Assembly: GCA_041736305.1 (NCBI GenBank)
Contig: JBGSTX010000333.1
Coordinates: forward strand, 1-31,843
DNA: 31,843 nucleotides
Direction of reading: 5' to 3'
From: Oligoflexus sp.
GTDB taxonomy: Bacteria; Bdellovibrionota_B; Oligoflexia; Oligoflexales; Oligoflexaceae
A model generated the notes under the pieces. The model was not told the DNA's origin. It saw only the letters and a list, made by a program, of their open reading frames with translations, and made no database searches. The stretch's first letter is position 1; every line of letters begins with the position of its first letter. The translations under genes and the position numbers were made by a program. This document shows positions 3,707-31,843 of this stretch, piece by piece.

Positions 3707-5296
3707 ATGTTTAAGTGGAAAAAATCGGCGGATCTGGACTCCAATACTTTTTTCAAATCATGGCAGGCCTATACGGTACTCGTGCTTGCCATGGGCGCCA
3801 TGATGTTTTTTGGGGTCTGTCAACCTGATGGGGGAACTCAATGGGTTCCTGGGGGCTCGGCCGCGGCTGTCGACGGCGTCGAAGTAGGAGCTATGGAGTT
3901 CCGCCGCGCGCATATCGCGCTCTCCAATCAGATGCAGCAACAGTATCGCGATAAATTCGATCCAGTTGCCATGCGCGTAGCCGAGCAGACTCTCAATAGC
4001 ATCGTCGATAATTTGACTCTCTTCGTCGAAGCGAGTCGCAACGGTTTCTACGCTTCGGATGAGGAGCTCGACAAGGTCATCCTGGAAGGCGATTATTTTA
4101 AAGGGCAAAACGGCCAGTTCGATCCCGAATTGTTTCAGCGTTTTCTCAAATCGCAGGGCCACACCGAAAGATCGTTTACCGATGAGCTGCGGCGGAACAT
4201 TGTTTCGAGCAAGCTGCGCACCTTCGTGACCAGTACTTACCGGGGTTCTGAGAAAGTCGCTGAGGTCAATTACATGATCGATCAAACCAAACTCAACATC
4301 GATTTCCTGCGTCTTGATCCCAACTTGGTACCCATCAAGATCGAAAGCGCTGAGATTGAAAAATTTCTGAAAGACGGTGGCGAGGCCAAGGTCAAAGACT
4401 ACTACGAAAAAAATAAGTCTGAATTTGTCCAGGAACAGAAGGTCAAGGCGCGGCACATCCTGATTGCCTACAAGGACGCGCGAGCAGCATCTGGAGACGC
4501 TGTGAAGCGGAGCAAGGAAGAGGCTAAGGCCCTCGCAAGCAAAGTCGAGGCTGAAGCTAAAGCCCCTGCTGCCAATTTCGCGAAGCTGGCGGAGAAATAC
4601 ACTGATGAGGCCGCAGGCAAGGCGAAAGGTGGGGACTTGGGTTTTTTCCGGAAGGATCAGATGGTCAAGGAATTCGCAGACGTCGCGTTTAGCCTACAGC
4701 CTGGTCAAGTCAGTAACGTGGTCGAGACTCCTTTCGGCTTTCACATCATCCGCGTCGATGGCTTACAAGAACCTAAATCTGTGAGCCTCGAGCAAGCCAA
4801 GAACGAAATCGCTGAGAAGTTGATTGCCAAGGATAAAAAGCCGAAGCTTCTCGAGGAGAAAGCCACTGCGCTCTTGGCCGCTCTCAAAGAAGGCAAAGGT
4901 CAAGGAGAGCTCGCGGCACTAGGTATCGCCTGGAAGGAGACCGGTGACTTCAATATGGGCGCGCGCGTGATTCCAGGCGGTTTAGGACCTGATCCGGAGC
5001 TTCGCCAGGCTGTGCTTGCTCTGAAAAAGCCGGGTGAAATAAGCCCGAAGGCTTTGGCTGTCAATGGCTCTCACTACATCCTTCGCTTGAAAAGCCGAAC
5101 TGATGCCGACCTGTCGAAGATGGATGCTAAGGAGAAGGAGCAGATGCTCAGTTCCAGTCGCTTCATGGAAGCCTATAGCCTCTATACGTCTCTCACGGGT
5201 GGTTTAAGGTCTCGCTACGAGCAAGCGAAGAAAATCTACCGAAACCCTGAATATCTGCAGTACGACGCCAAGATGCGAGGACCGGGCGAAAGCTGA
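3707..5296 (+). CDS. ppiD: Membrane-anchored periplasmic chaperone/parvulin PPIase (PpiD/SurA N-terminal domain family)
   Basis: N-terminal TM, SurA_N-like helical region, parvulin motifs ARHILI, KGGDLGFF, MVKEF and VETPFGFHII. Confidence 0.8.
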   Translation: MFKWKKSADLDSNTFFKSWQAYTVLVLAMGAMMFFGVCQPDGGTQWVPGGSAAAVDGVEVGAMEFRRAHIALSNQMQQQYRDKFDPVAMRVAEQTLNSIVDNLTLFVEASRNGFYASDEELDKVILEGDYFKGQNGQFDPELFQRFLKSQGHTERSFTDELRRNIVSSKLRTFVTSTYRGSEKVAEVNYMIDQTKLNIDFLRLDPNLVPIKIESAEIEKFLKDGGEAKVKDYYEKNKSEFVQEQKVKARHILIAYKDARAASGDAVKRSKEEAKALASKVEAEAKAPAANFAKLAEKYTDEAAGKAKGGDLGFFRKDQMVKEFADVAFSLQPGQVSNVVETPFGFHIIRVDGLQEPKSVSLEQAKNEIAEKLIAKDKKPKLLEEKATALLAALKEGKGQGELAALGIAWKETGDFNMGARVIPGGLGPDPELRQAVLALKKPGEISPKALAVNGSHYILRLKSRTDADLSKMDAKEKEQMLSSSRFMEAYSLYTSLTGGLRSRYEQAKKIYRNPEYLQYDAKMRGPGES

Positions 5297-5313
5297 AGGA
5301 AAAAGACCTTTCA

Positions 5314-5337
5314 GAGGATGGCTCCTAAGCCATCCTC
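5314..5337. terminator. Stem-loop downstream of ppiD
   Basis: GAGGATGGCT-CCTA-AGCCATCCTC, a perfect 10-bp stem 18 nt after the stop. The U-tract on the + strand is weak. Confidence 0.5.
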
Positions 5338-5476
5338 GAAGCCGTTTGTGGCGTTCGCTATTCTCAGCTTAATAGCCGCCCCGTCTGCGGCACGAAACAA
5401 TCGATAAAATAAGCGGCATTGCCTCGCCGGGAAGCAAGGAATGCCAAAAGTCTCTGGATCCTGGAATGAGGTCACT

Positions 5477-6367
5477 ATGGTGTCGGCGCTGATTTTACGC
5501 AAGCCCACGAATCTCGAGCAGCATTTGGCGCTTCAGGCTCAAAGCTTGCTGCCTCAGGCGATCGAGCCTTCCTACCTCGCCTTCATCACGCAGGCGGATC
5601 AGGAGCATTATTCCTGTTTGGACGTACTGAAGCAAAGTCTGAAGTTGCTTAACGTGGACTTCGACGAGGCTCAACGCGGCGAACCCTGGCCGAAGAAAGA
5701 TTTTGACTTCATCATAGCCTTGGGTGGCGATGGAACTCTTATTACAGCTAGCTACGGTGTGCATGGTGATACCCCCATTATCGGTATTAAATCGTCTTCG
5801 GCGAGCGTCGGCTATCTCTGTGCTGCGGATCAGAGTTCAGTCGATACCGTGATGAAGATGCTGCTCGGTGGGCAGCTCGAATTTCTACCTCGGCATCGCC
5901 TCCGGGCTGTGATTGCGCGGACCGACGGTTCTATCGAAAAATCACCTTATTTCGCCTTGAATGATTTCCTCTTTGCTGCGGCAAACCCGGCAGCTACCAC
6001 GCGCTACCGTATTGCAAACCAAGAGCGTATGGAAGTCCACAAGTCGAGTGGTATCTGGATTTCGACAGCTACTGGGAGTACGGCAGCAATCTCAGCGGCT
6101 GGTGGACTTCCCATGGTAGCAGACGATTATCGCTTTCAGTTCCGCGTACGGGAACTCTATCGTGCGCAGGGAGATGGCTTGATGATCAACGGTGGCTTTT
6201 CGAATCCAGCCGACAAATTCTTTTGGATAGAAAATCATTGTCCCGCAGCGATTCTTGCGCTTGATGGTGAGAAGTGGGAGATAAAAATCGGCTTCGGCGA
6301 TGTGCTTTCATTTGAAGCGGGGCCACCAGTCCGTGTCGCCTTGCGACCTCAGGATCTAAGCTTCTAA
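5477..6367 (+). CDS. nadK: NAD(+)/NADH kinase
   Basis: GGDGTL, LND and STATGSTA motifs. Start placed at ATG 5477, which follows GAGG. Confidence 0.88.
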   Translation: MVSALILRKPTNLEQHLALQAQSLLPQAIEPSYLAFITQADQEHYSCLDVLKQSLKLLNVDFDEAQRGEPWPKKDFDFIIALGGDGTLITASYGVHGDTPIIGIKSSSASVGYLCAADQSSVDTVMKMLLGGQLEFLPRHRLRAVIARTDGSIEKSPYFALNDFLFAAANPAATTRYRIANQERMEVHKSSGIWISTATGSTAAISAAGGLPMVADDYRFQFRVRELYRAQGDGLMINGGFSNPADKFFWIENHCPAAILALDGEKWEIKIGFGDVLSFEAGPPVRVALRPQDLSF

Positions 6368-6385: not shown

Positions 6386-7567
6386 CTAAAAGACGCCTTT
6401 TTCTCGCCAGATCTCCCCTCGGATGGTTTCTAAAATAAGGTCGTCGCCATCGTGCCCGAGCATATAATTATGCTGAATGGGTACCTTTCCGGAAGGGGTG
6501 TCGAGTGCATAAGTCGGGATACCCAGACCCGTGATGTTCCCGCGTAGCGACTTCATTATTTCCAGTCCACGGCGAACTGAGATTCTAAGATGCTCGGTGC
6601 CTTCGACCGCGTGCGGGTGAAACACGTAATAAGGCCTCGCTCGTATTTGGAGCAGGCGGCGACAGAGCGCCATCATTTTTTCGGGACTATCGTTGACGCC
6701 TCTGAGAAGTACAGCCTGGTTACCTACCGGTATCCCGCGATTCACCAGATTAGCTACGGCTTGGGCTGCCTCGGGACTTATTTCTTCAGCGCAGTTAAAG
6801 TGGGTGTTGACGTAGACGGGGTGATAGCGAGCCAGAGTTTCGGCCAGCTGCGTGGTCACACGATAAGGCAAGGTCACAGGAGTTCTGGTTCCAAAGCGAA
6901 TAATCTCCACGTGCGGAATCGCGCGCAGACGTTGCAAGAGATTTTCGAGGGCTTGGTCAGAGGCCATGAAGGCGTCGCCGCCGGTTATCAGCACATCGCG
7001 AATAGCCGGATTACTGGCAATGTAGGCAATGCCATTGTCGATAATCGTTCGATTGAAATGCAGTCCAACCTCCTCGTCCCGCCTTTTTCTGAAACAGTAG
7101 CGGCAGTAAACGGGACAGAGTTGAGCTACGCAGAAGGCGACCCGATCGGGATAGACATGAACGACTTCACGAACGGGTGAATGCGGAACTTCGGATAAAG
7201 GATCTTTAACGCCCAACCTGTCGACCATCTCTTCAGCCCGTGGTAGGGCTTGCAGTCGGATTGGGCATTCTTCACTTTCATCGTCTAGTCGAGGTGCCAT
7301 CAGCCCCATGTAGTAGGGCGTAATACCAGCATTGAAGAGGTGTCCGAGTTTTTCAAAACCGGTTTTTTCACGCGGTGTCAGCACTAAGATGGCAGAGGCC
7401 TGCTCGTAGCTGGCTACCTGGTGTTTCATTTGCCAGCGCCAGTTGACGAAGTTCTGAGGGGTGGTCGCAAATTTCTCAGCCGTACGAGCGGTGATGGAGG
7501 CAGGCTGCTCAGCAAATTGTAAAAACTCTTCAGGGATCAAATGCATTGCGGTATCCTTGCCTGCCAT
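6386..7567 (-). CDS. KamA-family radical SAM protein (lysine 2,3-aminomutase-like)
   Basis: CPVYCRYCFR (CxxxCxxC), LITGGD, IRFGTR, NQAVLLRGVND and GKVP (PLP lysine). Start could be 7546. Confidence 0.9.
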   Translation of the reverse strand: MAGKDTAMHLIPEEFLQFAEQPASITARTAEKFATTPQNFVNWRWQMKHQVASYEQASAILVLTPREKTGFEKLGHLFNAGITPYYMGLMAPRLDDESEECPIRLQALPRAEEMVDRLGVKDPLSEVPHSPVREVVHVYPDRVAFCVAQLCPVYCRYCFRKRRDEEVGLHFNRTIIDNGIAYIASNPAIRDVLITGGDAFMASDQALENLLQRLRAIPHVEIIRFGTRTPVTLPYRVTTQLAETLARYHPVYVNTHFNCAEEISPEAAQAVANLVNRGIPVGNQAVLLRGVNDSPEKMMALCRRLLQIRARPYYVFHPHAVEGTEHLRISVRRGLEIMKSLRGNITGLGIPTYALDTPSGKVPIQHNYMLGHDGDDLILETIRGEIWREKGVF

Positions 7568-7630
7568 TTTCTGTGCCTAATATGTCTTAGTGACCTTCCC
7601 CTGTCCCGCCGCATTGTAGAGGAGCTTCTG

Positions 7631-8278
7631 ATGAAGATCAATCGCCTGGTTCTAGCTTCCACTTCGATTTATCGGCGGCAGCTCCTCGAGCAGGTCGGTA
7701 TACGAGTCGATAGTGGACAGCCTCTTTGCGACGAGTCCGCCATAGGCGGAAAAAATCCCGAGGAAATCGCTAGAAACCGTAGCGAGGCCAAAGGCCTTTC
7801 CCTCAAATCTCTCGCCAATCAGGCCCCTTTTCTGGCTTTGGCGGCCGACCAAGTTCTCGACTTTCAGAACCAGGCCTACGGGAAGGCCTATAGTCGCCAA
7901 GAAGCAGCAGAGCGTCTGGCTCTCTTCCAAGGTAAAACTCATCTCCTTCACAGTGCCTATTGCCTCGTATACTACGACGGTCTCAGCCAAGCACGCATTC
8001 TCAAGAGTCGCGTAGTCTCTGCAAAAATGCACATGCGCAGATTAATGGATGATGAGATTGAAGCTTACCTGGATATCGGCGAGTGGCAAGGCTGTGCAGG
8101 TTCCTATCAGTACGAAAATCGGGGCATGCAGCTCTTCGATCGTTTGGAGGGTGATATGTCAACCGTTGTAGGTCTACCGCTGCCCCATCTTTTAGCTGAT
8201 TTGAGGGCTTTGGGTATCAACCCCCTTTTGCAAGCTGCGGGGCCTTGGGAGTGCGTAACAGCCCCGTCTTTTTCTTGA
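7631..8278 (+). CDS. maf: Maf-family nucleotide pyrophosphatase (YceF-like)
   Basis: LVLASTSIYRRQLL, AADQV, CAGSY and VVGLPL motifs. ATG 7631 follows GAGGAG. Confidence 0.9.
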   Translation: MKINRLVLASTSIYRRQLLEQVGIRVDSGQPLCDESAIGGKNPEEIARNRSEAKGLSLKSLANQAPFLALAADQVLDFQNQAYGKAYSRQEAAERLALFQGKTHLLHSAYCLVYYDGLSQARILKSRVVSAKMHMRRLMDDEIEAYLDIGEWQGCAGSYQYENRGMQLFDRLEGDMSTVVGLPLPHLLADLRALGINPLLQAAGPWECVTAPSFS

Positions 8279-13088: not shown

Positions 13089-14582
13089 TCACGCACTCAC
13101 CATCTCAATAAGCCAAGCCAAGGTTTTCTTGATTTGAAATCTATCGAGGCTAGTCCATCGATCCGAACAGCCCCGACGTTCTTCAACCCATGTGGCAAAA
13201 GATTGGCGAGGATGCATGCGGGGGACCTCGTCCTCTATTATGACTAGCTTGTCTGGTTTTCCAGCCCAGCTTATGAATTGGGTGACCTCTGGCTTATAGC
13301 CGATTATCGAGTACGTCCAACGTGAGGCCTCGTCGCTATATTCTGTTTGAGCTAGCAGAAGCCCGCCGATTGCTGCTGGCCAATCGCTTAATTCAGAAAA
13401 ATCATCAGAACATCGCTCAGACGAAAAAAGCGCCATGTTCTTATGCGAAGCCCGCGTTCCCATGAAGCTCGCGATGATGCTTTCTTGCGGACAGCGGCCT
13501 ATACTCGCGATTCGGCCGTTTACGATGAAGGTCAACCCGCAAAGATTTAAAAAACTTAGCAATTTATCTCTTGCAGGGTTCGCAATCTGAAGCCCATCGC
13601 TCTTCCAGTGAATATGGCGGGCAAGATCAGTGAACACCTCGTCGGCTTTGGTGCGCCAGTGGTTCTCCTCGAGTATCTGAATCGTTCGCAAGGTGATGGA
13701 GAAATTTTGAACGGATTCGATCGCTAGCATCCGCTGCTGAAAAGAAGGGACCAGATGGGTATAGTTGTGGCAGGCAATAAGTCCCCAAAGGCGATCATCA
13801 GCCATAATAGGAAGCGACAGGGAAGACGTGACTCCCATATTGCGCAAGTATTCCAAATGAACTGGAGACACGCTCCGTAAATAAGAATGCGTGAGGTCGA
13901 GAGTGTGCCCTGGATCTGATAGGATGCGGACTGGCGTCTCGTCACTCCGCCCTACCAAGCGGCAGAGAGTCTTCGCGTAAAGATCGCGCGCATTTCTCGG
14001 GATGTCAGATGCAGGAAACCGGTGACCGAGATAGCGAGGGCCCTGGCCACCCTGGAACTCAGTGACAACCTCCCCACTGAAATCCTCGAGGAATTGGTAG
14101 ACCATAATATGATCAAAATTTATGATCCTTTTTAAGGATCTAAGTAGCTCGGCATAAGCACTTTCCAGATTTCTCGGCTGATCCCCGGAGTGCGCGTGGG
14201 ATGGGTCGCGTGGAAGGATAAGGGGACGCAGGGAAGGCGGATTCGGCTCGAACTCGACAAAGGCACCTTCAGCATGCACGATCACGGTCGCGGTCCAAAC
14301 TTCGTCTCCTCGTCTCCAAGTACCGAGAAGCGTGGGAACTAGCATGAAGGCATTTTTTAGAATGTATTCAAAGTCCTGTAGATTCTGAAAGATGCTTATA
14401 AAACGCTTCTTAAGGAGGCTTCGAGGATCGAAACCGAGACGAGTCACATTTTCGCTGAAAGCCACAATTATCTGAGCGGCATCGATGGCTACCAAAACGC
14501 CATGCGACTGAATAGAAGCGGTGTAGCGGAGTTCTTCCTGCTCGCAAGAGGCAAAAGGATCGTTAGTCTCTGGCCTTGTCAT
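13089..14582 (-). CDS. Bacteriophytochrome photosensory core (PAS-GAF-PHY) without output domain
   Basis: N-terminal chromophore Cys (SCEQEE..SIQSHG), FPASDIP, LRSVSPVHLEYLRNMGV, LWGLIACH, tongue motifs WAG, PRQSF and WxE. The protein ends about 35 aa after PRQSF. Confidence 0.9.
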   Translation of the reverse strand: MTRPETNDPFASCEQEELRYTASIQSHGVLVAIDAAQIIVAFSENVTRLGFDPRSLLKKRFISIFQNLQDFEYILKNAFMLVPTLLGTWRRGDEVWTATVIVHAEGAFVEFEPNPPSLRPLILPRDPSHAHSGDQPRNLESAYAELLRSLKRIINFDHIMVYQFLEDFSGEVVTEFQGGQGPRYLGHRFPASDIPRNARDLYAKTLCRLVGRSDETPVRILSDPGHTLDLTHSYLRSVSPVHLEYLRNMGVTSSLSLPIMADDRLWGLIACHNYTHLVPSFQQRMLAIESVQNFSITLRTIQILEENHWRTKADEVFTDLARHIHWKSDGLQIANPARDKLLSFLNLCGLTFIVNGRIASIGRCPQESIIASFMGTRASHKNMALFSSERCSDDFSELSDWPAAIGGLLLAQTEYSDEASRWTYSIIGYKPEVTQFISWAGKPDKLVIIEDEVPRMHPRQSFATWVEERRGCSDRWTSLDRFQIKKTLAWLIEMVSA

Positions 14583-14809
14583 AACGTACCCAGCAAACTT
14601 TTAAGTTAAACGCGCTGATGCTCTTGAGCTTTGCAAACTTCCATTCGTCCTATTAATGGAAGCGTTTACATCGCAGTACATCAGACTGTCTAGCGAATAA
14701 GACTGAGACCGGAATTTTTGTCGATCGAGACACCTCGCTCTTTTTTCGAAATAAACTTATATAATGCCTGTTGATTGAGATACAAAGTTTCTCCTTTTTG
14801 GAGAGCTGC

Positions 14810-16759
14810 ATGACAAACAAGCATGCCCTCGTAAAAATTGAGCTGGATCAAAACCAAATAGATGATTTTGTAAGCCAAATGACTAAAGCCTTTCCCGATT
14901 TAAAGCTTAATTTAGCCATCTCTGAAGTCCAAGAAGTGGCGCAACTGCATTCCCCATCTTGCCAGAGAATTTTTTCCGCAGTCGGGTCGGAAAGCTCATG
15001 CCGCTTAGGATTATTGAAAGGTACGGGCCCCCTAACAATTTGTAGGTCGAATAGTTTGGATACGAGGAAGTCAAGCTTGCCCTGTGCTCTGCATTCACAG
15101 GATGACGGAGGCCGAAAGGCGACGATAGATAAATTGCAAAAGGATAATCGTGAACTGATGACGCAACTGGTCATACAGTCCGATTTCAATCGCTGCCTTC
15201 TGGACATGAGTAACGATGCAATTTTGTCATGCGCTAGCGATTTTATGATAGAAGCTGCTAACCGCGCAGCCTATCGCCTGTTCGAAATGCATGAAGATGA
15301 ACTGATTGGACATAACTTGACAGAATTTCTGGCAGGTAAAGAAGAGCTTGCGCGATTTATGAGAGTCTGTCAGAAAGCGGCCTTGTCGGAATCTAACATT
15401 GTTGCGAGTGAACGTACGTTCCCGTTTGAGACACCCAATAGCGCTTTGAAATACGTAGAAATTGGTTTTAAACAGTATTTTAAGTACCAAAGGCCCTATT
15501 ACGTTCTAGTGCTGAAAGATTGCACAATAGAAAAGCGCAGGGAGTCCGAGCTTTTTGCCAATATCGCAGCCAAGCAAATCGCCGAGAATGCCAATCAGTC
15601 AAAGAGCCTTTTTTTAGCGAATATGAGTCACGAAATTCGCACCCCGCTGAACGCAATTCTCGGATTTATGGAGCTTTTACTCGAAAATCGTCAGGATGCA
15701 GGTCGTTGCGAAAATTACGCAAAGACCATTCGTCAAAACTCGCGTCTCCTCTTGCAGATCGTTAACGATATACTTGATCTGTCGAAAGTCGAAGCTGGCA
15801 AGCTCGATATATGCTTGGCTCCTTGTTCCCTGCCCAGAGTGCTTTCGGATATCCGAGAGATTTTCCTAGCCAAGTCGATAGAAAAAGGCATCCGTTTTCG
15901 CATTGAAGTGAATGAAAACGTGCCTGAGTTTTTTGAAATAGATGAAATGCGGCTTGAACAGATACTCATTAATCTCATCAGTAATAGTATGAAGTTCACG
16001 AGCCGGGGGTCGATCCTCTTGGGGGTTAATAGTGGCTCCGATCAAGAGACTTCTCAGCCTGTCCTGCGTTTCGAAGTGAAAGATACGGGGAGGGGTATAA
16101 GCACGGAGGCCAAAAGCACGCTTTTTCAGGCTTTTGCGCAGGGCGATATATCCCCTGTTCGGAAAGGCTTGGGGGGAACCGGCTTGGGTCTCTTGCTGTC
16201 TCGAAGATTGGCGGAGGCCCTGCACGGTAGCTTGGATTTGCTGTGGAGCGAAGTCGACCGGGGATCTATCTTTGAACTTAAGATAAGAGCTGAAAAGATG
16301 AGTGGTCGCTACCACAAGGCTCATAGCCCGGAGGAAGCAGTAGAACCCCACTATTTTGCGAAAAAGCTCACAGATGCGCCCTTCCATGGGCTTAGATTTC
16401 TCGTGGTCGACGACTCTGAAGACAACCGCGAATTGCTAGGTTTTTTTCTTAGCTGCAACGGTGGAGAAGTTACTTTTGCTGTTAATGGACAGGAGGCCAT
16501 TGAACAGGTGCGAAATTCACCTGTTGATTTTATATTTATGGATCTGCAAATGCCTGTGATGGACGGCCTCGTCGCGACCCGAAAGCTTAGAGAATCTGGC
16601 TATAGACGTACTATCTTCGCTCTATCGGCTGCGACTATGCAAGAGCAGAGGCAGGCAGCCATTGATGCAGGTTTTGACGAGCACCTGTCGAAGCCGATTG
16701 ATATGGGACGCATCATCCAAATGGTTCAGCTTTTTGAAGCAGATCGTATAGCGCCATGA
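14810..16759 (+). CDS. Hybrid sensor histidine kinase (PAS-HisKA-HATPase-REC)
   Basis: FLANMSHEIRTPLN, QILINLISNSMKFT, DTGRG and GGTGLGL; receiver LVVDD, MDLQMPVMDG and KP. Start placed at ATG 14810. Confidence 0.93.
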   Translation: MTNKHALVKIELDQNQIDDFVSQMTKAFPDLKLNLAISEVQEVAQLHSPSCQRIFSAVGSESSCRLGLLKGTGPLTICRSNSLDTRKSSLPCALHSQDDGGRKATIDKLQKDNRELMTQLVIQSDFNRCLLDMSNDAILSCASDFMIEAANRAAYRLFEMHEDELIGHNLTEFLAGKEELARFMRVCQKAALSESNIVASERTFPFETPNSALKYVEIGFKQYFKYQRPYYVLVLKDCTIEKRRESELFANIAAKQIAENANQSKSLFLANMSHEIRTPLNAILGFMELLLENRQDAGRCENYAKTIRQNSRLLLQIVNDILDLSKVEAGKLDICLAPCSLPRVLSDIREIFLAKSIEKGIRFRIEVNENVPEFFEIDEMRLEQILINLISNSMKFTSRGSILLGVNSGSDQETSQPVLRFEVKDTGRGISTEAKSTLFQAFAQGDISPVRKGLGGTGLGLLLSRRLAEALHGSLDLLWSEVDRGSIFELKIRAEKMSGRYHKAHSPEEAVEPHYFAKKLTDAPFHGLRFLVVDDSEDNRELLGFFLSCNGGEVTFAVNGQEAIEQVRNSPVDFIFMDLQMPVMDGLVATRKLRESGYRRTIFALSAATMQEQRQAAIDAGFDEHLSKPIDMGRIIQMVQLFEADRIAP

Positions 16760-24125: not shown

Positions 24126-25934
24126 TTATATGTTGATGCTTTGCGGAATCCGCGACGGCAAAAGGTGGATGTAGGGGACATAGCGCGTCTGGTTCCGGCG
24201 CTCGATTTCCGCTTCAGCTGCTGCAAGGCGAGCCTTATGACGTGCGAGTGCTTCGCTAATCGGACCATCCGTAAAGTCTTTTAGAATGCCGTTTGGATGC
24301 TGATCATAATTGCCGTAGCTTGTGTAATTGATCCCAGCTAATACTGCGAGGATGCCCGCAGTAGTGACTCCAACTTCCAGAGGAGGAAGATTCTGCAACC
24401 AATCTTCTTCGGTATGGCCTAGACCTTTTGGTTCTGGAGTGAATCCCGCGAGAGGGTTGGCAGGCATAAAGGCCATGTCAGTCCCTTGGGTAAAGTTCAC
24501 TGCGGCGTGCTGAGGGCCTGCCGTAAACAAAACCATGGTCAAAATACCGACGAGGTCTTCGCGGCTTAGAACTTGACCAGGGGTATCGCCAAAGTCCTTA
24601 ACCATTCCACCTTCAGGAGACGCGAGTTCCGCTGCCCAAGCCTGGAGTTCCGTGTCGCTTGCGACTTCGGAATCGTTCTTGTAGAAAGTCGAAACAAATT
24701 CTTCGATCCATTTTTGAGTGAGATTCCAAATGAGCAGACCATCATCACGATAGGGGTAATGACGGAGGATGCTGGAATCCATTGTCCCGAGCCGGCGCAT
24801 ACGATCTGGTAGATAGTTAGAGCGGAACGAGTAGCCAAGGCGCGTATTTTTAACGAACTCGTAGGCTGAGGGCAGATCAGCTCCGATAAGCCGATCAACC
24901 GCTTTTTCCGGTTTGATAAGGACATTAGTAGCTGCAAAGTTGATCAGGATCGTGCCTTCGAAGTGGTGCGTGAGCAGCGCGCCTACGGGATGCCGCGTCG
25001 ATAGATTGCGGCGTGTAGACACTACAAAAGCATCCATAAGGTAATGCGTGAGGCCTAGGTGACTAGCCAATTCATGATGGGTGTTGTGAGCTGCCAAAAC
25101 GCAGTTCTTTGCGATCTTCCAGCTATAGCCATCAAGCGGTGTATAGATGATGCGATCTTCGGGGGTCGGCCCGGTTTGAATCGCGAAAGGACAGAGGCGT
25201 CCACCCCCACGCGGCACTGCGAAGGCAGCCCAGGGTGCATAGATGTACTTGGGAGTCTGGCCATAGTGCAGACCGTTCTTGAGTACGCTGAGGCCTGAGT
25301 GATCGACGACATAGATGCGACCTTCGCCTAGTGCGGTCTCAAGATCATCATCAGCAAACTCAGGAACGGTATGCAACTGCTGGTTGCTGATCGGAAAGTT
25401 AGCAGGGACTTCGTTCAGTCGTTTAATGACGTTGGGATTTGGGCCGGCAACGAAATTATTTGCGAAGCTTTCGTCGGTCTGGAAGCGAAGCGCGATCTCT
25501 GGCAAAGGCATGGTGGCGAAGATATCATTAAAATCTTTGAGGCTCTTGGCGGAGCCGAGGGTTGGTCCAAGATCGGGGAGGACACCGCGACCTAGGGTAG
25601 AGCCTATATCTCTGAAAGCTTGCAATGCTTTCGCTATATCTTTGCTATTGGCGCCTTTGAGAAATTGAGTCAACTCTTCAGGAGCAACGCTTTCTGGAAT
25701 GGCGTCTGAGTTGGAAGTATTATTCAGATACTTCGTAACGTTGGCGCTGACACGGAAGAGGACATCAACCAGTTGCCTTACCCACTCTGGTCCGTTTAGG
25801 TCAGCAGTTACTTGGGGAATTTGGTTGAGGGGAATGCCAACCGAGCGTTCGTAGCGATAAGCTTGTTGACGAGCAGCCAAGCGAGGCCACCTCAGGGCTG
25901 GAAGGTCTTTCTGGGGAATTTTGTACTGCGCCAT
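24126..25934 (-). CDS. Lipoxygenase
   Basis: WKIAK, HHELASHLGLTH, HAAVN and C-terminal IPQSINI give the full set of LOX iron ligands; also AGPNP and YPYRDDG. Confidence 0.95.
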   Translation of the reverse strand: MAQYKIPQKDLPALRWPRLAARQQAYRYERSVGIPLNQIPQVTADLNGPEWVRQLVDVLFRVSANVTKYLNNTSNSDAIPESVAPEELTQFLKGANSKDIAKALQAFRDIGSTLGRGVLPDLGPTLGSAKSLKDFNDIFATMPLPEIALRFQTDESFANNFVAGPNPNVIKRLNEVPANFPISNQQLHTVPEFADDDLETALGEGRIYVVDHSGLSVLKNGLHYGQTPKYIYAPWAAFAVPRGGGRLCPFAIQTGPTPEDRIIYTPLDGYSWKIAKNCVLAAHNTHHELASHLGLTHYLMDAFVVSTRRNLSTRHPVGALLTHHFEGTILINFAATNVLIKPEKAVDRLIGADLPSAYEFVKNTRLGYSFRSNYLPDRMRRLGTMDSSILRHYPYRDDGLLIWNLTQKWIEEFVSTFYKNDSEVASDTELQAWAAELASPEGGMVKDFGDTPGQVLSREDLVGILTMVLFTAGPQHAAVNFTQGTDMAFMPANPLAGFTPEPKGLGHTEEDWLQNLPPLEVGVTTAGILAVLAGINYTSYGNYDQHPNGILKDFTDGPISEALARHKARLAAAEAEIERRNQTRYVPYIHLLPSRIPQSINI

Positions 25935-27998: not shown

Positions 27999-28796
27999 AT
28001 GCGTTTCGTCCATATCTCTGACCTCCACTTCGGCCCCCATTATAGACCAGCCGTTGGTGAAAGTCTGCTTGACTACCTGGCGCAGGGGGCCTTTGATGCC
28101 GTCGTAATAACAGGTGATTTTACGCAGCGCGCAACGCGAGAACAGTTTGTTCAGGCTGGGTCTTTCCTCGAACGCTTGCGGAGCTTAGTACCCGAGGTCG
28201 TCGTCTGCCCTGGGAATCACGATATACCATTGTTTCGTATTTGGGAGCGGGTTTTTTATCCTTTTCGTCTCTATAAGAAATTCATTCATCCTCACTTAAA
28301 TCAAATTGTGGATATCCATGATGCCAGGATTATAGCGCTCAACAGTGTGCGTCCGCTGAAAAGGCTAGTAGAGGGCAGACTTAGCCGGCAGCAACTACGA
28401 CTCGTTCAGAGCAGCCTCTCCCAAAACCCACAGAAAATGTTTCGGATCCTAGCGCTGCACCATCCTCCCGATGTTTCGCATGATAGGCCGGTCATATCGT
28501 CGCGAGAAAGGGAGTTCGTCCGACTTTGCATCGAACAGAAAGTCGATATTGTACTGAGTGGTCACGTACATGTGTCACGAGTTTTGCCGCTGACGAGCTC
28601 TCCAGGAGGGGCTCCGCTCCTCGTAGGCTGCGGGACGACTACTTCTGGTCGCGGTCGGCAGGCTGAAAAGGACCGCAATACCTTCAGACTTATCGAAGGC
28701 GATGCGCAGGGGCTAACTATCAGCACCTTTGCACTTGAGCCGGGTACTAAGATTTTCGTAATCCTCGCCCGAGAAGATTATCCAAAACCGTTCTAG
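27999..28796 (+). CDS. Metallophosphoesterase (CpdA/Icc-like)
   Basis: HISDLHFG, TGD, PGNHD, HHP and GHVH motifs; GGAG RBS. Confidence 0.92.
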   Translation: MRFVHISDLHFGPHYRPAVGESLLDYLAQGAFDAVVITGDFTQRATREQFVQAGSFLERLRSLVPEVVVCPGNHDIPLFRIWERVFYPFRLYKKFIHPHLNQIVDIHDARIIALNSVRPLKRLVEGRLSRQQLRLVQSSLSQNPQKMFRILALHHPPDVSHDRPVISSREREFVRLCIEQKVDIVLSGHVHVSRVLPLTSSPGGAPLLVGCGTTTSGRGRQAEKDRNTFRLIEGDAQGLTISTFALEPGTKIFVILAREDYPKPF

Positions 28797-29013
28797 CTGG
28801 ACTCTGACAGTACGGCAAAGTTCTGATTTTTTCTTAGCTCGCCAGGGCCGCATCTGCATTCAATGAGAATATCCTTGGAAGTAATAATTAGAAAGCTCAC
28901 TAGTATCAAGAGATTAAGTGCATGCTTTGCAGTTAAGGATTTTTAACTCAGCAAACCCCCCCTCCCTCACGAAAAGTTTAATAGGCGACTGATCGCACTT
29001 AGGGGAAAATGAA

Positions 29014-29685
29014 ATGGCTGCTTCATCGGCAAAAAAATTGTCTCATGCCAATTCCCCGACATCCCTCACCGAGCAGATTTGGGGAATCAGTTGGAACCAA
29101 CACTTCCCCAAGCCGCTGACGGCGACGATAAGAGTTGAAATGCGGAGCTACGAGGAGGCTTCTCCCCTCATAGCCCAGCTTTTTCCCGAAGTTTACCTGA
29201 TGGATGGCAAGTCACCGTTCGGGGAAAACAACAGTAAAGAATTCAAGAAAAAATACTATGAGATGGCAGGGGATTTCTTCGTCTTCCTTGATGCATCGAA
29301 GGGTGACAAGGTCGCTGGCATGGCGATAGGCACAGTACTCGACTGGTCTAGCTACAATTTTAGAAATATCTCGATCGCAGATGAATATCAGGAAAGCGGA
29401 CTCTATCTGAGCTTTTTTGAAGCCCTCTGCGATGTGATGAGGGAGCACGGCGTCAGTCGCATCGAAGGTGATGTAGCTCCTTCCAACCGCCACCATATTC
29501 ATGTGCTCAATAAGATGGGCTACATGGTGACAGCGATGAGTTACTCCGAGCGATGGGGCGTACTGCTGCACATAGCAAAGTACCTGAATCCGGACGATGA
29601 AGAGCGTTTTACTAAGCTTTTCTCAATGTCAGCCAACAGCGATCTCAAAGCGAATTCGCGGGCGAAAAAGCCCAAGAATTCATGA
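29014..29685 (+). CDS. GNAT-fold acyltransferase
   Basis: Motif-A-like NISIADEYQESGLY, motif-B-like DVAPSN...LNKMGY; AGGGG RBS. Confidence 0.7.
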   Translation: MAASSAKKLSHANSPTSLTEQIWGISWNQHFPKPLTATIRVEMRSYEEASPLIAQLFPEVYLMDGKSPFGENNSKEFKKKYYEMAGDFFVFLDASKGDKVAGMAIGTVLDWSSYNFRNISIADEYQESGLYLSFFEALCDVMREHGVSRIEGDVAPSNRHHIHVLNKMGYMVTAMSYSERWGVLLHIAKYLNPDDEERFTKLFSMSANSDLKANSRAKKPKNS

Positions 29686-29698
29686 AAAAACTCACTAG

Positions 29699-29725
29699 CC
29701 TTAAGCGATAGGCGCTTAAGGTTTT
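29699..29725 (+). terminator. Stem-loop/terminator after the GNAT gene
   Basis: CCTTAAGCG-ATAGG-CGCTTAAGG followed by TTTT. Confidence 0.6.
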
Positions 29726-29752
29726 ATATGCAACAAGTTTTAGGAGTCTGCC

Positions 29753-29785
29753 ATGAAAAAGAAATACGCGTTGATTTCGTTCTAA
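29753..29785 (+). CDS. 10-aa micro-ORF MKKKYALISF, candidate RiPP precursor
   Basis: AGGAG at 29742-29746, 6 nt before the ATG; TAA followed by a GC-rich hairpin; sits inside a GNAT-oxidase-YcaO cluster. Confidence 0.55.
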   Translation: MKKKYALISF

Positions 29786-29791
29786 TTTAAA

Positions 29792-29822
29792 GGCGGGTCG
29801 AAAGACCCGCCCCCTCTTCTTT
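29792..29822 (+). terminator. GC-rich hairpin after the micro-ORF (leaky terminator or stabilising stem)
   Basis: GGCGGGTC-GAAA-GACCCGCC (GNRA tetraloop) followed by the pyrimidine tract CCCTCTTCTTT. Confidence 0.65.
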
Positions 29823-29860
29823 CCCTGTACCACTTCCCGCAGTATACTTTGGAGGCGACT

Positions 29861-30541
29861 ATGGCTAACTCACTCTATGATCAGTTGACCAAGCGTATCG
29901 CGCAGCACTTCGAACAGATGAAAACAAAGAACACATTCTACCAGAGAATTTTCACCGGTAAGCTCACCGTCGATGAACTCGTTTTATTTATCAAAAATGT
30001 CAGCTATCTGACTTCCTATACGCCTGTTCATCTCAAGATGGCCCATGACGTGGCGCAGTCAAAGTCCTTGCATCAGCTAGCCGCCTATTTCAAATCCAAG
30101 CAGAAAGAAGAACAGGGCCACGACGAGTGGGGCAAGCAAGATATCCAAGGGATAGCGAGCCAGTTCGCTGTTTCTATCCAGAATGTACCTGTCCTCTCTG
30201 AAATGAAATCCTACGTGCTGGCCAATGAGAGCATGATCAAAAAAGATCCCTTTCTCTACTTTGTCTATATTCTCTATGCAGAATACTACACAGTTATCGC
30301 GGGCCCTGAGTCCCTTGCTGCAATTGAGAAGCACTGCAAGGTGCCCCAAGATCTGGTAAGCATCATTTCGAACCATGCGGAACTTGACAAGTATCACGTC
30401 GAAGATTGGGCACAAGAAGCTCGCGATGTTGGCCTTGATCCTAAATCGCTCCCGATCTACCTGACGAATCTCGATGAAATTCTGCAGCGCTACGATAACT
30501 TCTGCCAAGCCTTGAGTAGACGCCATGCAAACGTCGCCTAA
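29861..30541 (+). CDS. Heme-oxygenase-like di-iron oxidase (iron-containing redox enzyme; TenA/PqqC/CADD fold)
   Basis: Helical protein of about 226 aa with EEQGH (EExxH), a mid-sequence Glu (YAE) and HAELDKYH (HxxxDxxH) ligand motifs; GGAGG RBS. Confidence 0.8.
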   Translation: MANSLYDQLTKRIAQHFEQMKTKNTFYQRIFTGKLTVDELVLFIKNVSYLTSYTPVHLKMAHDVAQSKSLHQLAAYFKSKQKEEQGHDEWGKQDIQGIASQFAVSIQNVPVLSEMKSYVLANESMIKKDPFLYFVYILYAEYYTVIAGPESLAAIEKHCKVPQDLVSIISNHAELDKYHVEDWAQEARDVGLDPKSLPIYLTNLDEILQRYDNFCQALSRRHANVA

Positions 30542-31565
30542 AGATAAGCTACATGCAACTCAAATGCCTGCCGGTTGGAAATTGATCGACGAGCTGAATG
30601 AGAACGTCGATCTCTTCACAGCCAAAATTCAAATTGCGGGTAAGGCAGCGCAGCATGAGTTGCTCGGGACCAGCGTGACCGGCAGTTCGGCGAGCTGGAC
30701 GCAAAACCCCGAGGCTTTTGCCTACTTCGAACTTCTGGAACGGATGGCAATAGTTGAAGCCTTAGACAGGCACAAGTCTAATGAAGGCCAAGTTTGGCGA
30801 CTCATCGATCCTCATCGGGGCGGAAGTCGAGGCGAGGCAGTCGAGATTTTTCAGAATTCTTCCAAACCTGATATTTGGCAGCCATCGAAATCCAACGGCG
30901 TAGCCCTCGGTAGCAGCTGGCAGCACGCAAGCCAAAACGCAGTTTGCGAAGCGGTTGAGCGGCACCTGGTGCTGGCCTCTTGGTATGGTGCTTTGATACC
31001 TCAAAAGCTTGAAGCCGGGGCCCTGCCTCTCGCCCTCGCCCCACTTGCACGTCACTACAATGTTATGCATTATTCTTTCGGAGAATTGCCGACAGCCGCT
31101 ACACGGACTCCCGTCGCTGTCACAGGGACGTTCTTCTGGCCTCGGAAGCCGAATGCGCCGTTGATATATGGCTTTGGAGCCGGTCTTTCATCCAACGAAG
31201 CCCTGCAAAAGAGCCTGAAGGAAGCTGTCCAGCGCCTCAGTTTTCTAGATGGTGAAGAGGTTCCGGAAATCGAGCCTCTTTTCAGTCCCACTCCGGATTA
31301 TCATCAAGAATACTTCCTGCATCCGGAACGCCAAGAGGTTTTGAGCAAATGGCTGAGGGGTGAGTTTTTCAAAGGGAGCGAGAGCACTCAGCTTCTGGAT
31401 ACGCGGAACCCTGTGCAATTTGTAGATCTCACTCCGTCGACTCTCGAGACGCTAGTCGTCGTGAAGGCCCTTACACCGAGCCTTCTGCCTTTGTGCTTCG
31501 GGCGTTTCATCGATGAACGTTGTCCCGAGATCGAAGCCGATAGACTCATTCATCCGGTGGTTTAG
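30525..31565 (+). CDS. YcaO-family protein
   Basis: ATP/Mg motifs FELLER, SKSNGVALG and CEAVERH, plus GFGAG...EAVQ and a Pro-containing C-terminus IHPVV. Overlaps the oxidase gene by 17 nt. Confidence 0.85.
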   Translation: MQTSPKDKLHATQMPAGWKLIDELNENVDLFTAKIQIAGKAAQHELLGTSVTGSSASWTQNPEAFAYFELLERMAIVEALDRHKSNEGQVWRLIDPHRGGSRGEAVEIFQNSSKPDIWQPSKSNGVALGSSWQHASQNAVCEAVERHLVLASWYGALIPQKLEAGALPLALAPLARHYNVMHYSFGELPTAATRTPVAVTGTFFWPRKPNAPLIYGFGAGLSSNEALQKSLKEAVQRLSFLDGEEVPEIEPLFSPTPDYHQEYFLHPERQEVLSKWLRGEFFKGSESTQLLDTRNPVQFVDLTPSTLETLVVVKALTPSLLPLCFGRFIDERCPEIEADRLIHPVV

Positions 31566-31594
31566 ACCTGCTATCTTTATTCTTAGTTTTCTGC

Positions 31595-31621
31595 GCCGGC
31601 CGACTGCCGGCTTTCGCTTTT
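31595..31621 (+). terminator. Terminator after the YcaO gene
   Basis: GCCGGC-CGACT-GCCGGC followed by TTTCGCTTTT. Confidence 0.6.
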
Positions 31622-31843
31622 AGGCTTTTTCAGATTCAGCAAGAACTGGGTTCCACGAGCTTCTTGATGAGCATCCCTTAGGAAAAGATTACCTCGGTAA
31701 ACCGTAAGCAGTTCACCTGCGCATAGAGACTAAGTCCACATTCCCAGCTAGGTTTAATTCCATCGAGAGAAACCGCGATGGAGACCGACTCAAATGAAAG
31801 CTTCCTTCAATCACGATTCCTGCCTTAAGTCCCTGGCTGCTGA

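Follow-up and report, generated by a model that had tools for sequence, protein, structure and literature searches.

A ten-codon gene conserved beside a heme-oxygenase-like putative oxidase and a YcaO protein: a candidate minimal peptide-modifying system in Oligoflexus

The locus described in this report raises the question of what its enzymes act on. It occupies positions 29014 to 31621 of an Oligoflexus sp. contig of 31,843 nucleotides (nt), which was analyzed over its whole length and is called the window here; the parent genome is 5.02 Mb in size and 92.7% complete. According to the list of open reading frames (ORFs) and the window sequence, the unit has four reading frames, all co-oriented on the plus strand: an acyltransferase of the GNAT family, an ORF of only 10 codons (the micro-ORF), a protein with the fold of the heme-oxygenase-like diiron oxidases (HDO), and a short YcaO protein. 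A first-pass annotation, made from the sequence alone, had described these ORFs, the coordinates of the unit, the overlap of the last two and a closing terminator, all of which agree with the ORF list and the sequence. It had also put the set forward as a candidate system for a ribosomally made peptide that is modified after translation (RiPP), a proposal that the gene set, its conservation and the conserved motifs support. Our answer is that the locus is a minimal RiPP-type biosynthetic system that acts on the 10-residue peptide encoded by the micro-ORF, a reading to which we give a probability of roughly 0.7. Labels beginning with L, G and P denote loci, genomes and proteins and were assigned within this analysis.

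Conservation of the micro-ORF

The micro-ORF of the window reads ATG AAA AAG AAA TAC GCG TTG ATT TCG TTC TAA. When the spacer between the GNAT and HDO genes was aligned with those of two other Oligoflexus loci, the Shine-Dalgarno (SD) sequence and ATGAAAAAGAAATACGCNTTG were invariant, and the peptides ended in ISF, TTL and STF. A list of SD-preceded tiny ORFs upstream of HDO, drawn up without any motif, turned up such a peptide at almost every locus, with SD-like purine runs ahead of it in nearly all. The pattern used for searching, M-K-K-(K/R)-F/Y-A-x-x-[S/T/C] followed by a hydrophobic residue (F, L, I and others) and a stop, was built from the first of these motif-free matches and is therefore derived from the data; a rescan with a free tail of two to eight residues of any kind served as a control.

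All 38 motif matches in 358 kb of sequence (the loci plus the window, in rows that include duplicates of one place) adjoin HDO or YcaO genes. The micro-ORF was found beside HDO in 20 of the 21 loci of a scan with the HDO profile, the exception (L030) beginning at a contig edge, in 15 of 19 strong Oligoflexia loci, and in 22 of 23 strong myxobacterial loci, or in all 23 when the last residue was left free, since the 23rd peptide ends in Ser. The carriers of the module are Oligoflexia and Polyangiaceae-type Myxococcota, members of two phyla. A six-frame scan of the 5.02-Mb genome gives one match to the motif, at 29753, yet dozens of other genomes have it next to HDO, and for this reason we regard the micro-ORF as beyond chance. 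The free-tail rescan gave 52 HDO-adjacent copies, every one with a tail of exactly four residues and with Ser, Thr or Cys in the penultimate position; five other matches lay elsewhere, within unrelated genes, and the free-tail pattern has 65 matches across the whole genome.

Forty-four distinct peptides were collected, with residue and length classes that are in part imposed by the search pattern. Their penultimate residue is Thr in 22, Cys in 14 and Ser in 8; the last residue is Phe in 24, Leu in 10, Ile in 5, Val in 2, and Tyr, Met and Ser in 1 each; and the length is 10 residues in 25 and 9 residues in 19. Across genomes of low and high G+C content, synonymous exchanges (AAA/AAG, TTC/TTT, GCN, ACN, TCN/AGC) leave the peptide unchanged, with AAA becoming AAG in the micro-ORFs of the G+C-rich genomes. 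By this comparison of sequences, the micro-ORF is a real protein-coding gene under selection at the amino-acid level. The first-pass annotation had pointed to the 10-codon ORF and suggested a search for conserved short ORFs between the enzymes; the ORF proved to be conserved beside HDO, and conserved as a peptide.

Copy number and position vary. Locus L015 of genome G003 (the same place as L011 and L038) has five tandem copies at 7448 to 7958, all encoding MKKKFATVTF and differing only synonymously, in an array that includes an N stretch and may hold more than five; L050 has two tandem copies. Each tandem copy in these loci has its own SD. The micro-ORF of L016, L045 and L057 lies on the opposite strand or on the other side of the enzymes, downstream of YcaO. 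Genome G007 carries a micro-ORF encoding MKKKYALITY directly before YcaO on contig C282, and its GNAT and HDO genes abut on contig C95. The GNAT frame of several myxobacterial loci reaches or overlaps the start of HDO, and there the micro-ORF lies within or against the 3' end of the GNAT gene.

These arrangements bear on a different reading of the micro-ORF, as a cis-acting leader peptide that tunes HDO and YcaO by attenuation or translational control, with the enzymes using some other substrate. In most loci the micro-ORF and HDO do share a strand, with the micro-ORF directly upstream and a strong hairpin after it, and a Lys-rich start could merely favor translation. In the alignment of the Oligoflexus spacers, the hairpins of L014 and L005 sit at the same positions as both window hairpins (Table 1) and differ in sequence, those after the micro-ORF being compensatory; a stem of at least 8 contiguous pairs occurs within 60 nt after the last micro-ORF copy in 27 of 44 loci, which were hand-picked so that no genome place was counted twice, versus 99 of 880 windows of 60 nt drawn at random from these loci. 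A leader is hard to reconcile with the tandem arrays of L015 and L050, with the three loci in which the micro-ORF is not a single upstream element in cis, with L063, where it precedes YcaO with no HDO, and with the GNAT frames that reach the HDO start and leave no separate leader region. That Ser, Thr and Cys replace one another at a single fixed position fits the need for a nucleophile rather than any known stalling motif, and an Rfam scan of 28700 to 31843 gave no match at E ≤ 1, to a leader or to a riboswitch. Because the micro-ORF is selected at the amino-acid level, keeps its Ser/Thr/Cys, occurs in multiple copies and is found on either side and either strand, we favor a precursor peptide and consider a cis leader very unlikely.

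Two further possibilities were looked at and set aside. Stop-codon read-through from the micro-ORF into HDO was considered, as the two share a frame in the window with no stop at 29786 to 29860, but the frames differ in L014, and the shared frame in the window is probably a coincidence. A search for a second, longer precursor among ORFs of 15 to 130 amino acids (aa) in the 21 loci and the window yielded no candidate: the small-ORF families present in at least three loci were antisense or off-frame readings of a large kinase gene, or were confined to the close relatives L021, L022 and L034.

The HDO-fold protein, the GNAT and their linkage to YcaO

The window HDO protein has no Pfam match at E ≤ 1, no NCBIfam match and no significant sequence match in the Protein Data Bank (PDB). 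Its AlphaFold2 (AF2) model (pLDDT 94.9) matched 3dde (TM-score 0.81) and Chlamydia CADD (TM-score 0.75) in Foldseek, and then heme oxygenases and PolF. The protein has the motifs EEQGH (E83 to H87) and HAELDKYH (H172 to H179), and E84, H87, E141, H172, D176 and H179 are invariant in 32 family sequences, in a pattern of three His and three carboxylates. Relatives P0008 (37.0 bits), P0038 (32.4 bits) and P0111 (30.4 bits) exceed the PF14518 cut-off of 28.9 bits, with the window protein itself below it; P0008 also has a weak TENA_THI-4/PQQC match. From the model, the protein is predicted to adopt the seven-helix heme-oxygenase-like fold with an intact putative six-residue metal site. Fold, motif and PF14518-passing relatives support the earlier family assignment, and the EExxH and HxxxDxxH motifs on which it drew are real and conserved in the 32-sequence alignment. 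The family comprises 324 clusters (50% identity, E ≤ 1e-30) among 1.84 billion cluster representatives.

Among 22 HDO C-termini, those of L014 to L034 and of the window (30500 to 30541), 11 end in Ala-Ala, 6 in another residue followed by Ala, and 5 in a residue other than Ala. The Ala endings are explained in part by the overlapping YcaO start codon (CAT-G/TAT-G), and the ending resembles an ssrA-like C-terminal degron. The C-terminal ...A-A of HDO itself was tried as the YcaO substrate and rejected, its conservation arising partly from that overlap and the micro-ORF fitting the data better.

The GNAT assignment of the first-pass annotation is upheld by Pfam (Acetyltransf_1, PF00583: 29.3 bits versus a cut-off of 20.7, E 1.1e-6). 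A 20-sequence alignment defines a subfamily with conserved DWS[ST]Y, P-x-N and ERWG motifs. In NCBIfam and the PDB, the nearest matches are N-alpha-acetyltransferases of the RimI type, all weak or far below equivalog cut-offs, and since the score falls so far short of those for RimI we do not take the protein to be RimI itself.

The same genes occur together in many genomes, in three locus sets (species representatives, phylum and myxobacterial order) that overlap in genomes and whose counts cannot be added. Among relatives of the window genome, a YcaO of the same subfamily is present in 15 of 40 searched (41 genomes with G000); in the 11 loci fetched from them HDO directly precedes YcaO in 7, with the GNAT as well in 3. 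The HDO-profile scan of species-representative genomes gave 21 loci, titled as Oligoflexus (including O. tunisiensis Shr3), Polyangiaceae, Myxococcota and unclassified (delta)proteobacteria: 14 have GNAT, HDO and YcaO in that order, 1 has GNAT and HDO only, and 6 have HDO and YcaO, two of which (L018 and L030) are too near a contig end for the GNAT to be judged. HDO was matched at E ≤ 1e-10 in 20 of 131 genomes of the window's phylum and at E ≤ 1e-15 in 28 of 301 genomes of the order around one Polyangiaceae-type genome. Thirty myxobacterial loci were fetched; 23 have tblastn matches to both GNAT and HDO, and in 17 of these 23 YcaO lies within the 1.5-kb flank. Where YcaO is not adjacent, a family YcaO was nonetheless present in all five genomes tested: upstream of the GNAT in G248, about 1.5 kb upstream of HDO in G238, divergent in G365, and on another contig in G377 and G020.

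Gene fusions connect the enzymes directly, HDO with YcaO in P0038 (559 aa), P0111 (558 aa) and P0106, and HDO with GNAT in P0110 (414 aa). The micro-ORF is genetically locked to HDO, to YcaO and often to the dedicated GNAT, and the fusions link the three enzymes. The co-occurrence of the three enzyme genes that the first-pass annotation expected is thus borne out by 14 of 21 loci, by all 23 myxobacterial loci for GNAT with HDO, and by the fusions; it does not extend to a fixed set, as gene order varies and the GNAT, by comparison of genomes, is accessory in Oligoflexia.

Two loci appear to be remnants. In L067 (G007:C355:10000-20000, at about 4889 to 5974) the N-terminal part of a GNAT (residues 3 to 180) runs into the C-terminal part of a YcaO (residues 149 to 346), which looks like what a deletion would leave of a GNAT, micro-ORF, HDO and YcaO unit. 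L034 (also L087; G407:C7:612820-613413) has an HDO with two in-frame stops (one TGA, one TAG), a partial YcaO match and an intact micro-ORF encoding VKKKFAHTCI; this copy of the module is probably decaying.

The YcaO protein and the proposed chemistry

The YcaO protein is the only one in the genome. Its Pfam match (PF02624, 62.0 bits versus a cut-off of 25.7, E 8e-17) and its fold confirm the family named in the first-pass annotation: the AF2 model has a pLDDT of 92.2, and the top Foldseek matches are all YcaO structures, led by those of Methanopyrus kandleri and Methanocaldococcus jannaschii (TM-score about 0.58) and followed by LynD, McbD, E. coli YcaO and MusD. Sequence profiles give TruD, MusD and LynD as the best matches, at about 1e-9, and these are azoline-forming enzymes. 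E69/E72, S123-N124-G125, E142/E145/R146 and a C-terminal HP motif are invariant, the acidic/R146 set in 37 sequences; E69, E72, E142, E145 and R146 are presumably the ATP/Mg-binding residues. A predicted YcaO-HDO complex scored 0.00 in a run without controls and has no bearing on binding.

Several proteins that accompany other YcaO enzymes were sought. Family scans of the window ORFs found no TfuA, E1-like protein, flavin dehydrogenase, protease or transporter in the unit, in agreement with the first-pass annotation. In the 92.7%-complete genome as a whole, neither a SagB-type flavin mononucleotide (FMN) dehydrogenase (TIGR03605) nor TfuA (PF07812; positive in a control genome) was found. No E1-like partner or RiPP recognition element (RRE) was present among the window ORFs; the search for an E1-like partner did not go beyond the window.

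YcaO cyclodehydratases turn Ser, Thr and Cys into azolines. Because the peptide has a fixed Ser/Thr/Cys, the genome has no detectable TfuA or SagB and the window has no E1, we propose an azoline at residue 9, oxidation by HDO and acylation by the GNAT. What is seen directly is which genes are present, how they are conserved and that their catalytic motifs are intact; the reactions would follow by analogy with the enzyme families. With ATP, YcaO would activate the backbone carbonyl of residue 8, which the side chain of the penultimate Ser, Thr or Cys (residue 9) would attack to give an oxazoline or thiazoline. The diiron HDO, with O2, would oxidize the product, most likely converting an azoline into an azole and standing in for the flavin dehydrogenase that is missing here; alternatively, it might oxidize or decarboxylate the C-terminal hydrophobic residue. 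The GNAT may acylate an amine, at the N terminus or on Lys, as tailoring or self-protection. The MKK(K)FA head could be a very short recognition element that makes an RRE or E1 partner unnecessary, and the flanking hairpins could make the precursor message stable and abundant, with read-through into the HDO and YcaO genes being partial.

The fold leaves the type of YcaO reaction undecided, because the structural neighbors are thioamide-forming at a TM-score of only about 0.58. The peptide could be the substrate of a YcaO that does not form azolines, one that carries out thioamidation with free sulfide, forms an amidine or cleaves peptides in an ATP-dependent way, or for which the peptide is just a scaffold whose C-terminal residues are cut out to yield a small molecule (a cofactor or signal). 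The best structural neighbors, TfuA-independent or TfuA-assisted thioamide YcaOs of methanogens, are consistent with this, as is MusD, a YcaO with peptidase activity, among the Foldseek matches; further points in its favor are the kinship of the HDO fold with TenA/PqqC-type proteins, to which P0008 adds its weak match, the lack of an exporter in the unit, and the giant GAF-domain kinase that directly follows in Polyangiaceae-type loci. Thioamide or amidine chemistry, however, needs no invariant Ser/Thr/Cys, no TfuA was found in the genome, and the sequence profile is nearer to the cyanobactin heterocyclases. We regard chemistry of this kind as unlikely, with azoline formation on the micro-ORF peptide as the preferred course.

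There is also a faint chance that the micro-peptide is not modified at all and serves as a regulatory or structural subunit that binds HDO, YcaO or a nearby sensor kinase. Tight linkage is by itself no proof of modification, and sensor kinases recur beside the module; but the catalytic motifs of YcaO and HDO are both complete, and tandem gene copies, like two variable residues ahead of a fixed nucleophile, are what precursor peptides typically show.

Several points weigh against a modified 10-residue precursor. Its proposed chemistry is read from genes. A leaderless precursor of 9 or 10 residues is unusual for a YcaO protein, and the nearest YcaO structures are archaeal and thioamide-forming, at the low TM-score given above; the match to the SagD-type NCBIfam model (TIGR03604) for thiazole/oxazole-modified microcins (TOMMs) is 56.9 bits, far below the cut-off of 219.25. 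The patterns used picked up no micro-ORF in L040, L047 (which is at a contig edge), L048 and L049, all four of them strong HDO loci of Oligoflexia, nor in the YcaO-only loci L064 to L066, whose YcaO is of the same subfamily; for L048, L049 and L064 to L066 the SD-filtered lists of tiny ORFs near the loci were negative too, the rest of those genomes not having been searched for the motif. The window ORF scans found neither a transporter nor a protease in the unit, and the hairpin that follows the micro-ORF could be that of an attenuator as well. Finally, a search at E ≤ 1e-5 detected no member of the GNAT family in G018 (96% complete), G031 (97%) or G001 (80%), and G003 and G010 have weak GNAT matches only (38 to 42 bits); with none detected in the first three, acylation cannot be essential.

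A broader form of the proposal is more tentative, and we hold it as possible though rather doubtful: that the module represents a new RiPP class, in which a leaderless peptide of 9 or 10 residues is the shortest YcaO substrate yet, HDO and not a flavoprotein is the partner, and the product is an intracellular peptide-derived signal or cofactor, read in Polyangiaceae-type myxobacteria by the giant kinase whose gene lies directly downstream. HDO might then, for example, oxidize azolines with O2 or decarboxylate the C terminus, and the product would not be an exported antibiotic.

Known systems and surrounding genes

The thiovarsolin (var) pathway of Streptomyces varsoviensis combines a YcaO-TfuA pair with the heme-oxygenase-like VarO, which is required for dehydrogenation; in a March 2026 review of HDO enzymes, the thiovarsolin work is the one reference for HDO modification of a ribosomal peptide. 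The two systems are alike in pairing a YcaO with a heme-oxygenase-like protein in a RiPP pathway, and the thiovarsolins are likewise very small and N-acetylated. They differ in that var needs TfuA and makes a thioamide, whereas no TfuA was found in the genome here; in the precursor, which in var is long, with a leader and APR repeats, and here has 9 or 10 residues with a fixed Ser/Thr/Cys; and in acetylation, ascribed in var, an actinobacterial system, to a host enzyme, with a dedicated GNAT here. VarO is a precedent, and a partial one, for a heme-oxygenase-like dehydrogenase in a YcaO RiPP pathway.

A combination of YcaO, an HDO or other iron-containing redox enzyme, and a micro-ORF is not described in the full-text literature searched, a scope outside which subscription journals and supplementary files fall (e.g., Supplementary Figure 22 of PMC8120280, on Sinorhizobium heme-oxygenase-like genes); the search yielded only the thiovarsolin papers and papers citing them. 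The first-pass annotation knew of no characterized RiPP class with such enzymes, which stands for the module as a whole and needs qualifying for thiovarsolin. The proteins carry public names such as "YcaO-like family protein," generic YcaO names (S12 accessory factor or cyclodehydratase) and "hypothetical protein."

The linear azol(in)e-containing peptide (LAP)/TOMM systems (microcin B17, goadsporin and the cyanobactin heterocyclases) share the YcaO domain and the same conserved acidic motifs, as reflected in the TruD/MusD/LynD profile matches and in McbD among the Foldseek matches, and would share the proposed attack of a Ser, Thr or Cys side chain on the preceding carbonyl. The goadsporin pathway also has an N-acetyltransferase. 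In contrast to those systems, the locus here has no E1 or RRE partner in the window, no FMN dehydrogenase found in the genome and a score below the SagD cut-off; their leader and core are far longer, and HDO takes the place of the flavin oxidase. Very short precursor genes have counterparts elsewhere: MccA of microcin C7 has 7 codons and BytA of the biarylitides 5, each adjoining its modifying enzyme, and a GNAT in the microcin C cluster is used for self-immunity. These systems resemble the present one in having a precursor gene of about 10 codons or fewer beside an enzyme and differ in that the enzyme is an adenylyltransferase or a P450; neither is known to have a YcaO or an HDO. CADD, UndA, BesC, SznF and PolF have the fold and the pattern of three His and three carboxylates seen in the window family; they act on free amino acids, fatty acids or their own residues, unlike the decapeptide proposed here to be shared with YcaO.

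Relative to known YcaO RiPPs, we regard both the type of precursor and the partner enzyme as new. Both chemistries are active fields, and TfuA-dependent thiovarsolin is the only joint precedent for YcaO and HDO that we found in print. The module is compact, a 33-nt gene with two or three enzymes, and widespread. It would offer a YcaO that recognizes a ten-residue substrate without a leader or RRE partner, and possibly a new diiron HDO reaction on a ribosomal peptide. It is also directly testable, since the peptide can be synthesized and Oligoflexus tunisiensis Shr3, which carries the module, is listed as a named strain, not as a metagenome-assembled genome. More generally, genes of 30 nt that gene callers overlook can be the center of a pathway.

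The features of the unit are collected in Table 1. The YcaO ATG lies inside the HDO gene, giving a 17-nt overlap. A promoter scan found no sigma-70-like site on the plus strand, and the contig end at 31843 bounds what can be seen 3' of the terminator.

Table 1. Features of the unit in the window
Feature	Position	Strand	Evidence
GNAT acyltransferase, 223 aa, dedicated subfamily	29014-29685	+	Pfam PF00583 above cut-off; 20-sequence family alignment
Stem-loop, 11-bp stem, then U-rich stretch	29697-29723, between GNAT stop and micro-ORF	+	RNA fold
Shine-Dalgarno AGGAG	29742-29746, 6 nt 5' of micro-ORF start	+	Sequence
Micro-ORF, 10 codons, MKKKYALISF, proposed precursor peptide	29753-29785	+	Motif conservation, codon evidence
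GC-rich stem-loop, 8 bp, GAAA loop	29792-29811, immediately 3' of micro-ORF	+	RNA fold
GGAGG ahead of HDO gene	29851-29855	+	Sequence
HDO-fold putative diiron oxidase, 226 aa	29861-30541	+	AF2 model, Foldseek, invariant metal-site residues
Short stand-alone YcaO, 346 aa	30525-31565	+	Pfam PF02624, AF2 model, Foldseek
Intrinsic-terminator-like hairpin, then T-tract, closing the unit	31595-31621 (hairpin 31595-31611)	+	Hairpin scan

Large kinases adjoin the module in other genomes. Among the 15 non-Oligoflexus loci of the HDO-profile scan, 10 (L019, L021, L022 and L024 to L030) have an uninterrupted ORF of about 1,730 to 2,000 aa just after YcaO, or after HDO in L028, that starts about 20 to 150 nt after YcaO (e.g., L021:9681-15266); in the others it is in two pieces (L033) or displaced (L034), or the locus ends too early (three loci). 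The three of these proteins that were scanned have Pkinase (Ser/Thr), AAA_16, GAF, HisKA, HATPase_c and receiver domains. The kinase could be a sensor for the product or could reflect inherited synteny. Sensor histidine kinases of the 7TMR-DISM type adjoin the HDO-YcaO module in two Oligoflexia loci (L023, 9814 to 11736; L031, 5489 to 7504), where again a signaling role or inherited synteny may account for them.

Elsewhere in the window, a 602-aa protein encoded at 24126 to 25934 on the minus strand has a full-length Pfam Lipoxygenase match (E 9.4e-48); lipoxygenases are uncommon in bacteria. A bacteriophytochrome-like photosensor with PAS_2, GAF and PHY domains (13089 to 14582, minus strand) is divergent from a PAS-containing hybrid histidine kinase with a receiver domain (14771 to 16759, plus strand).

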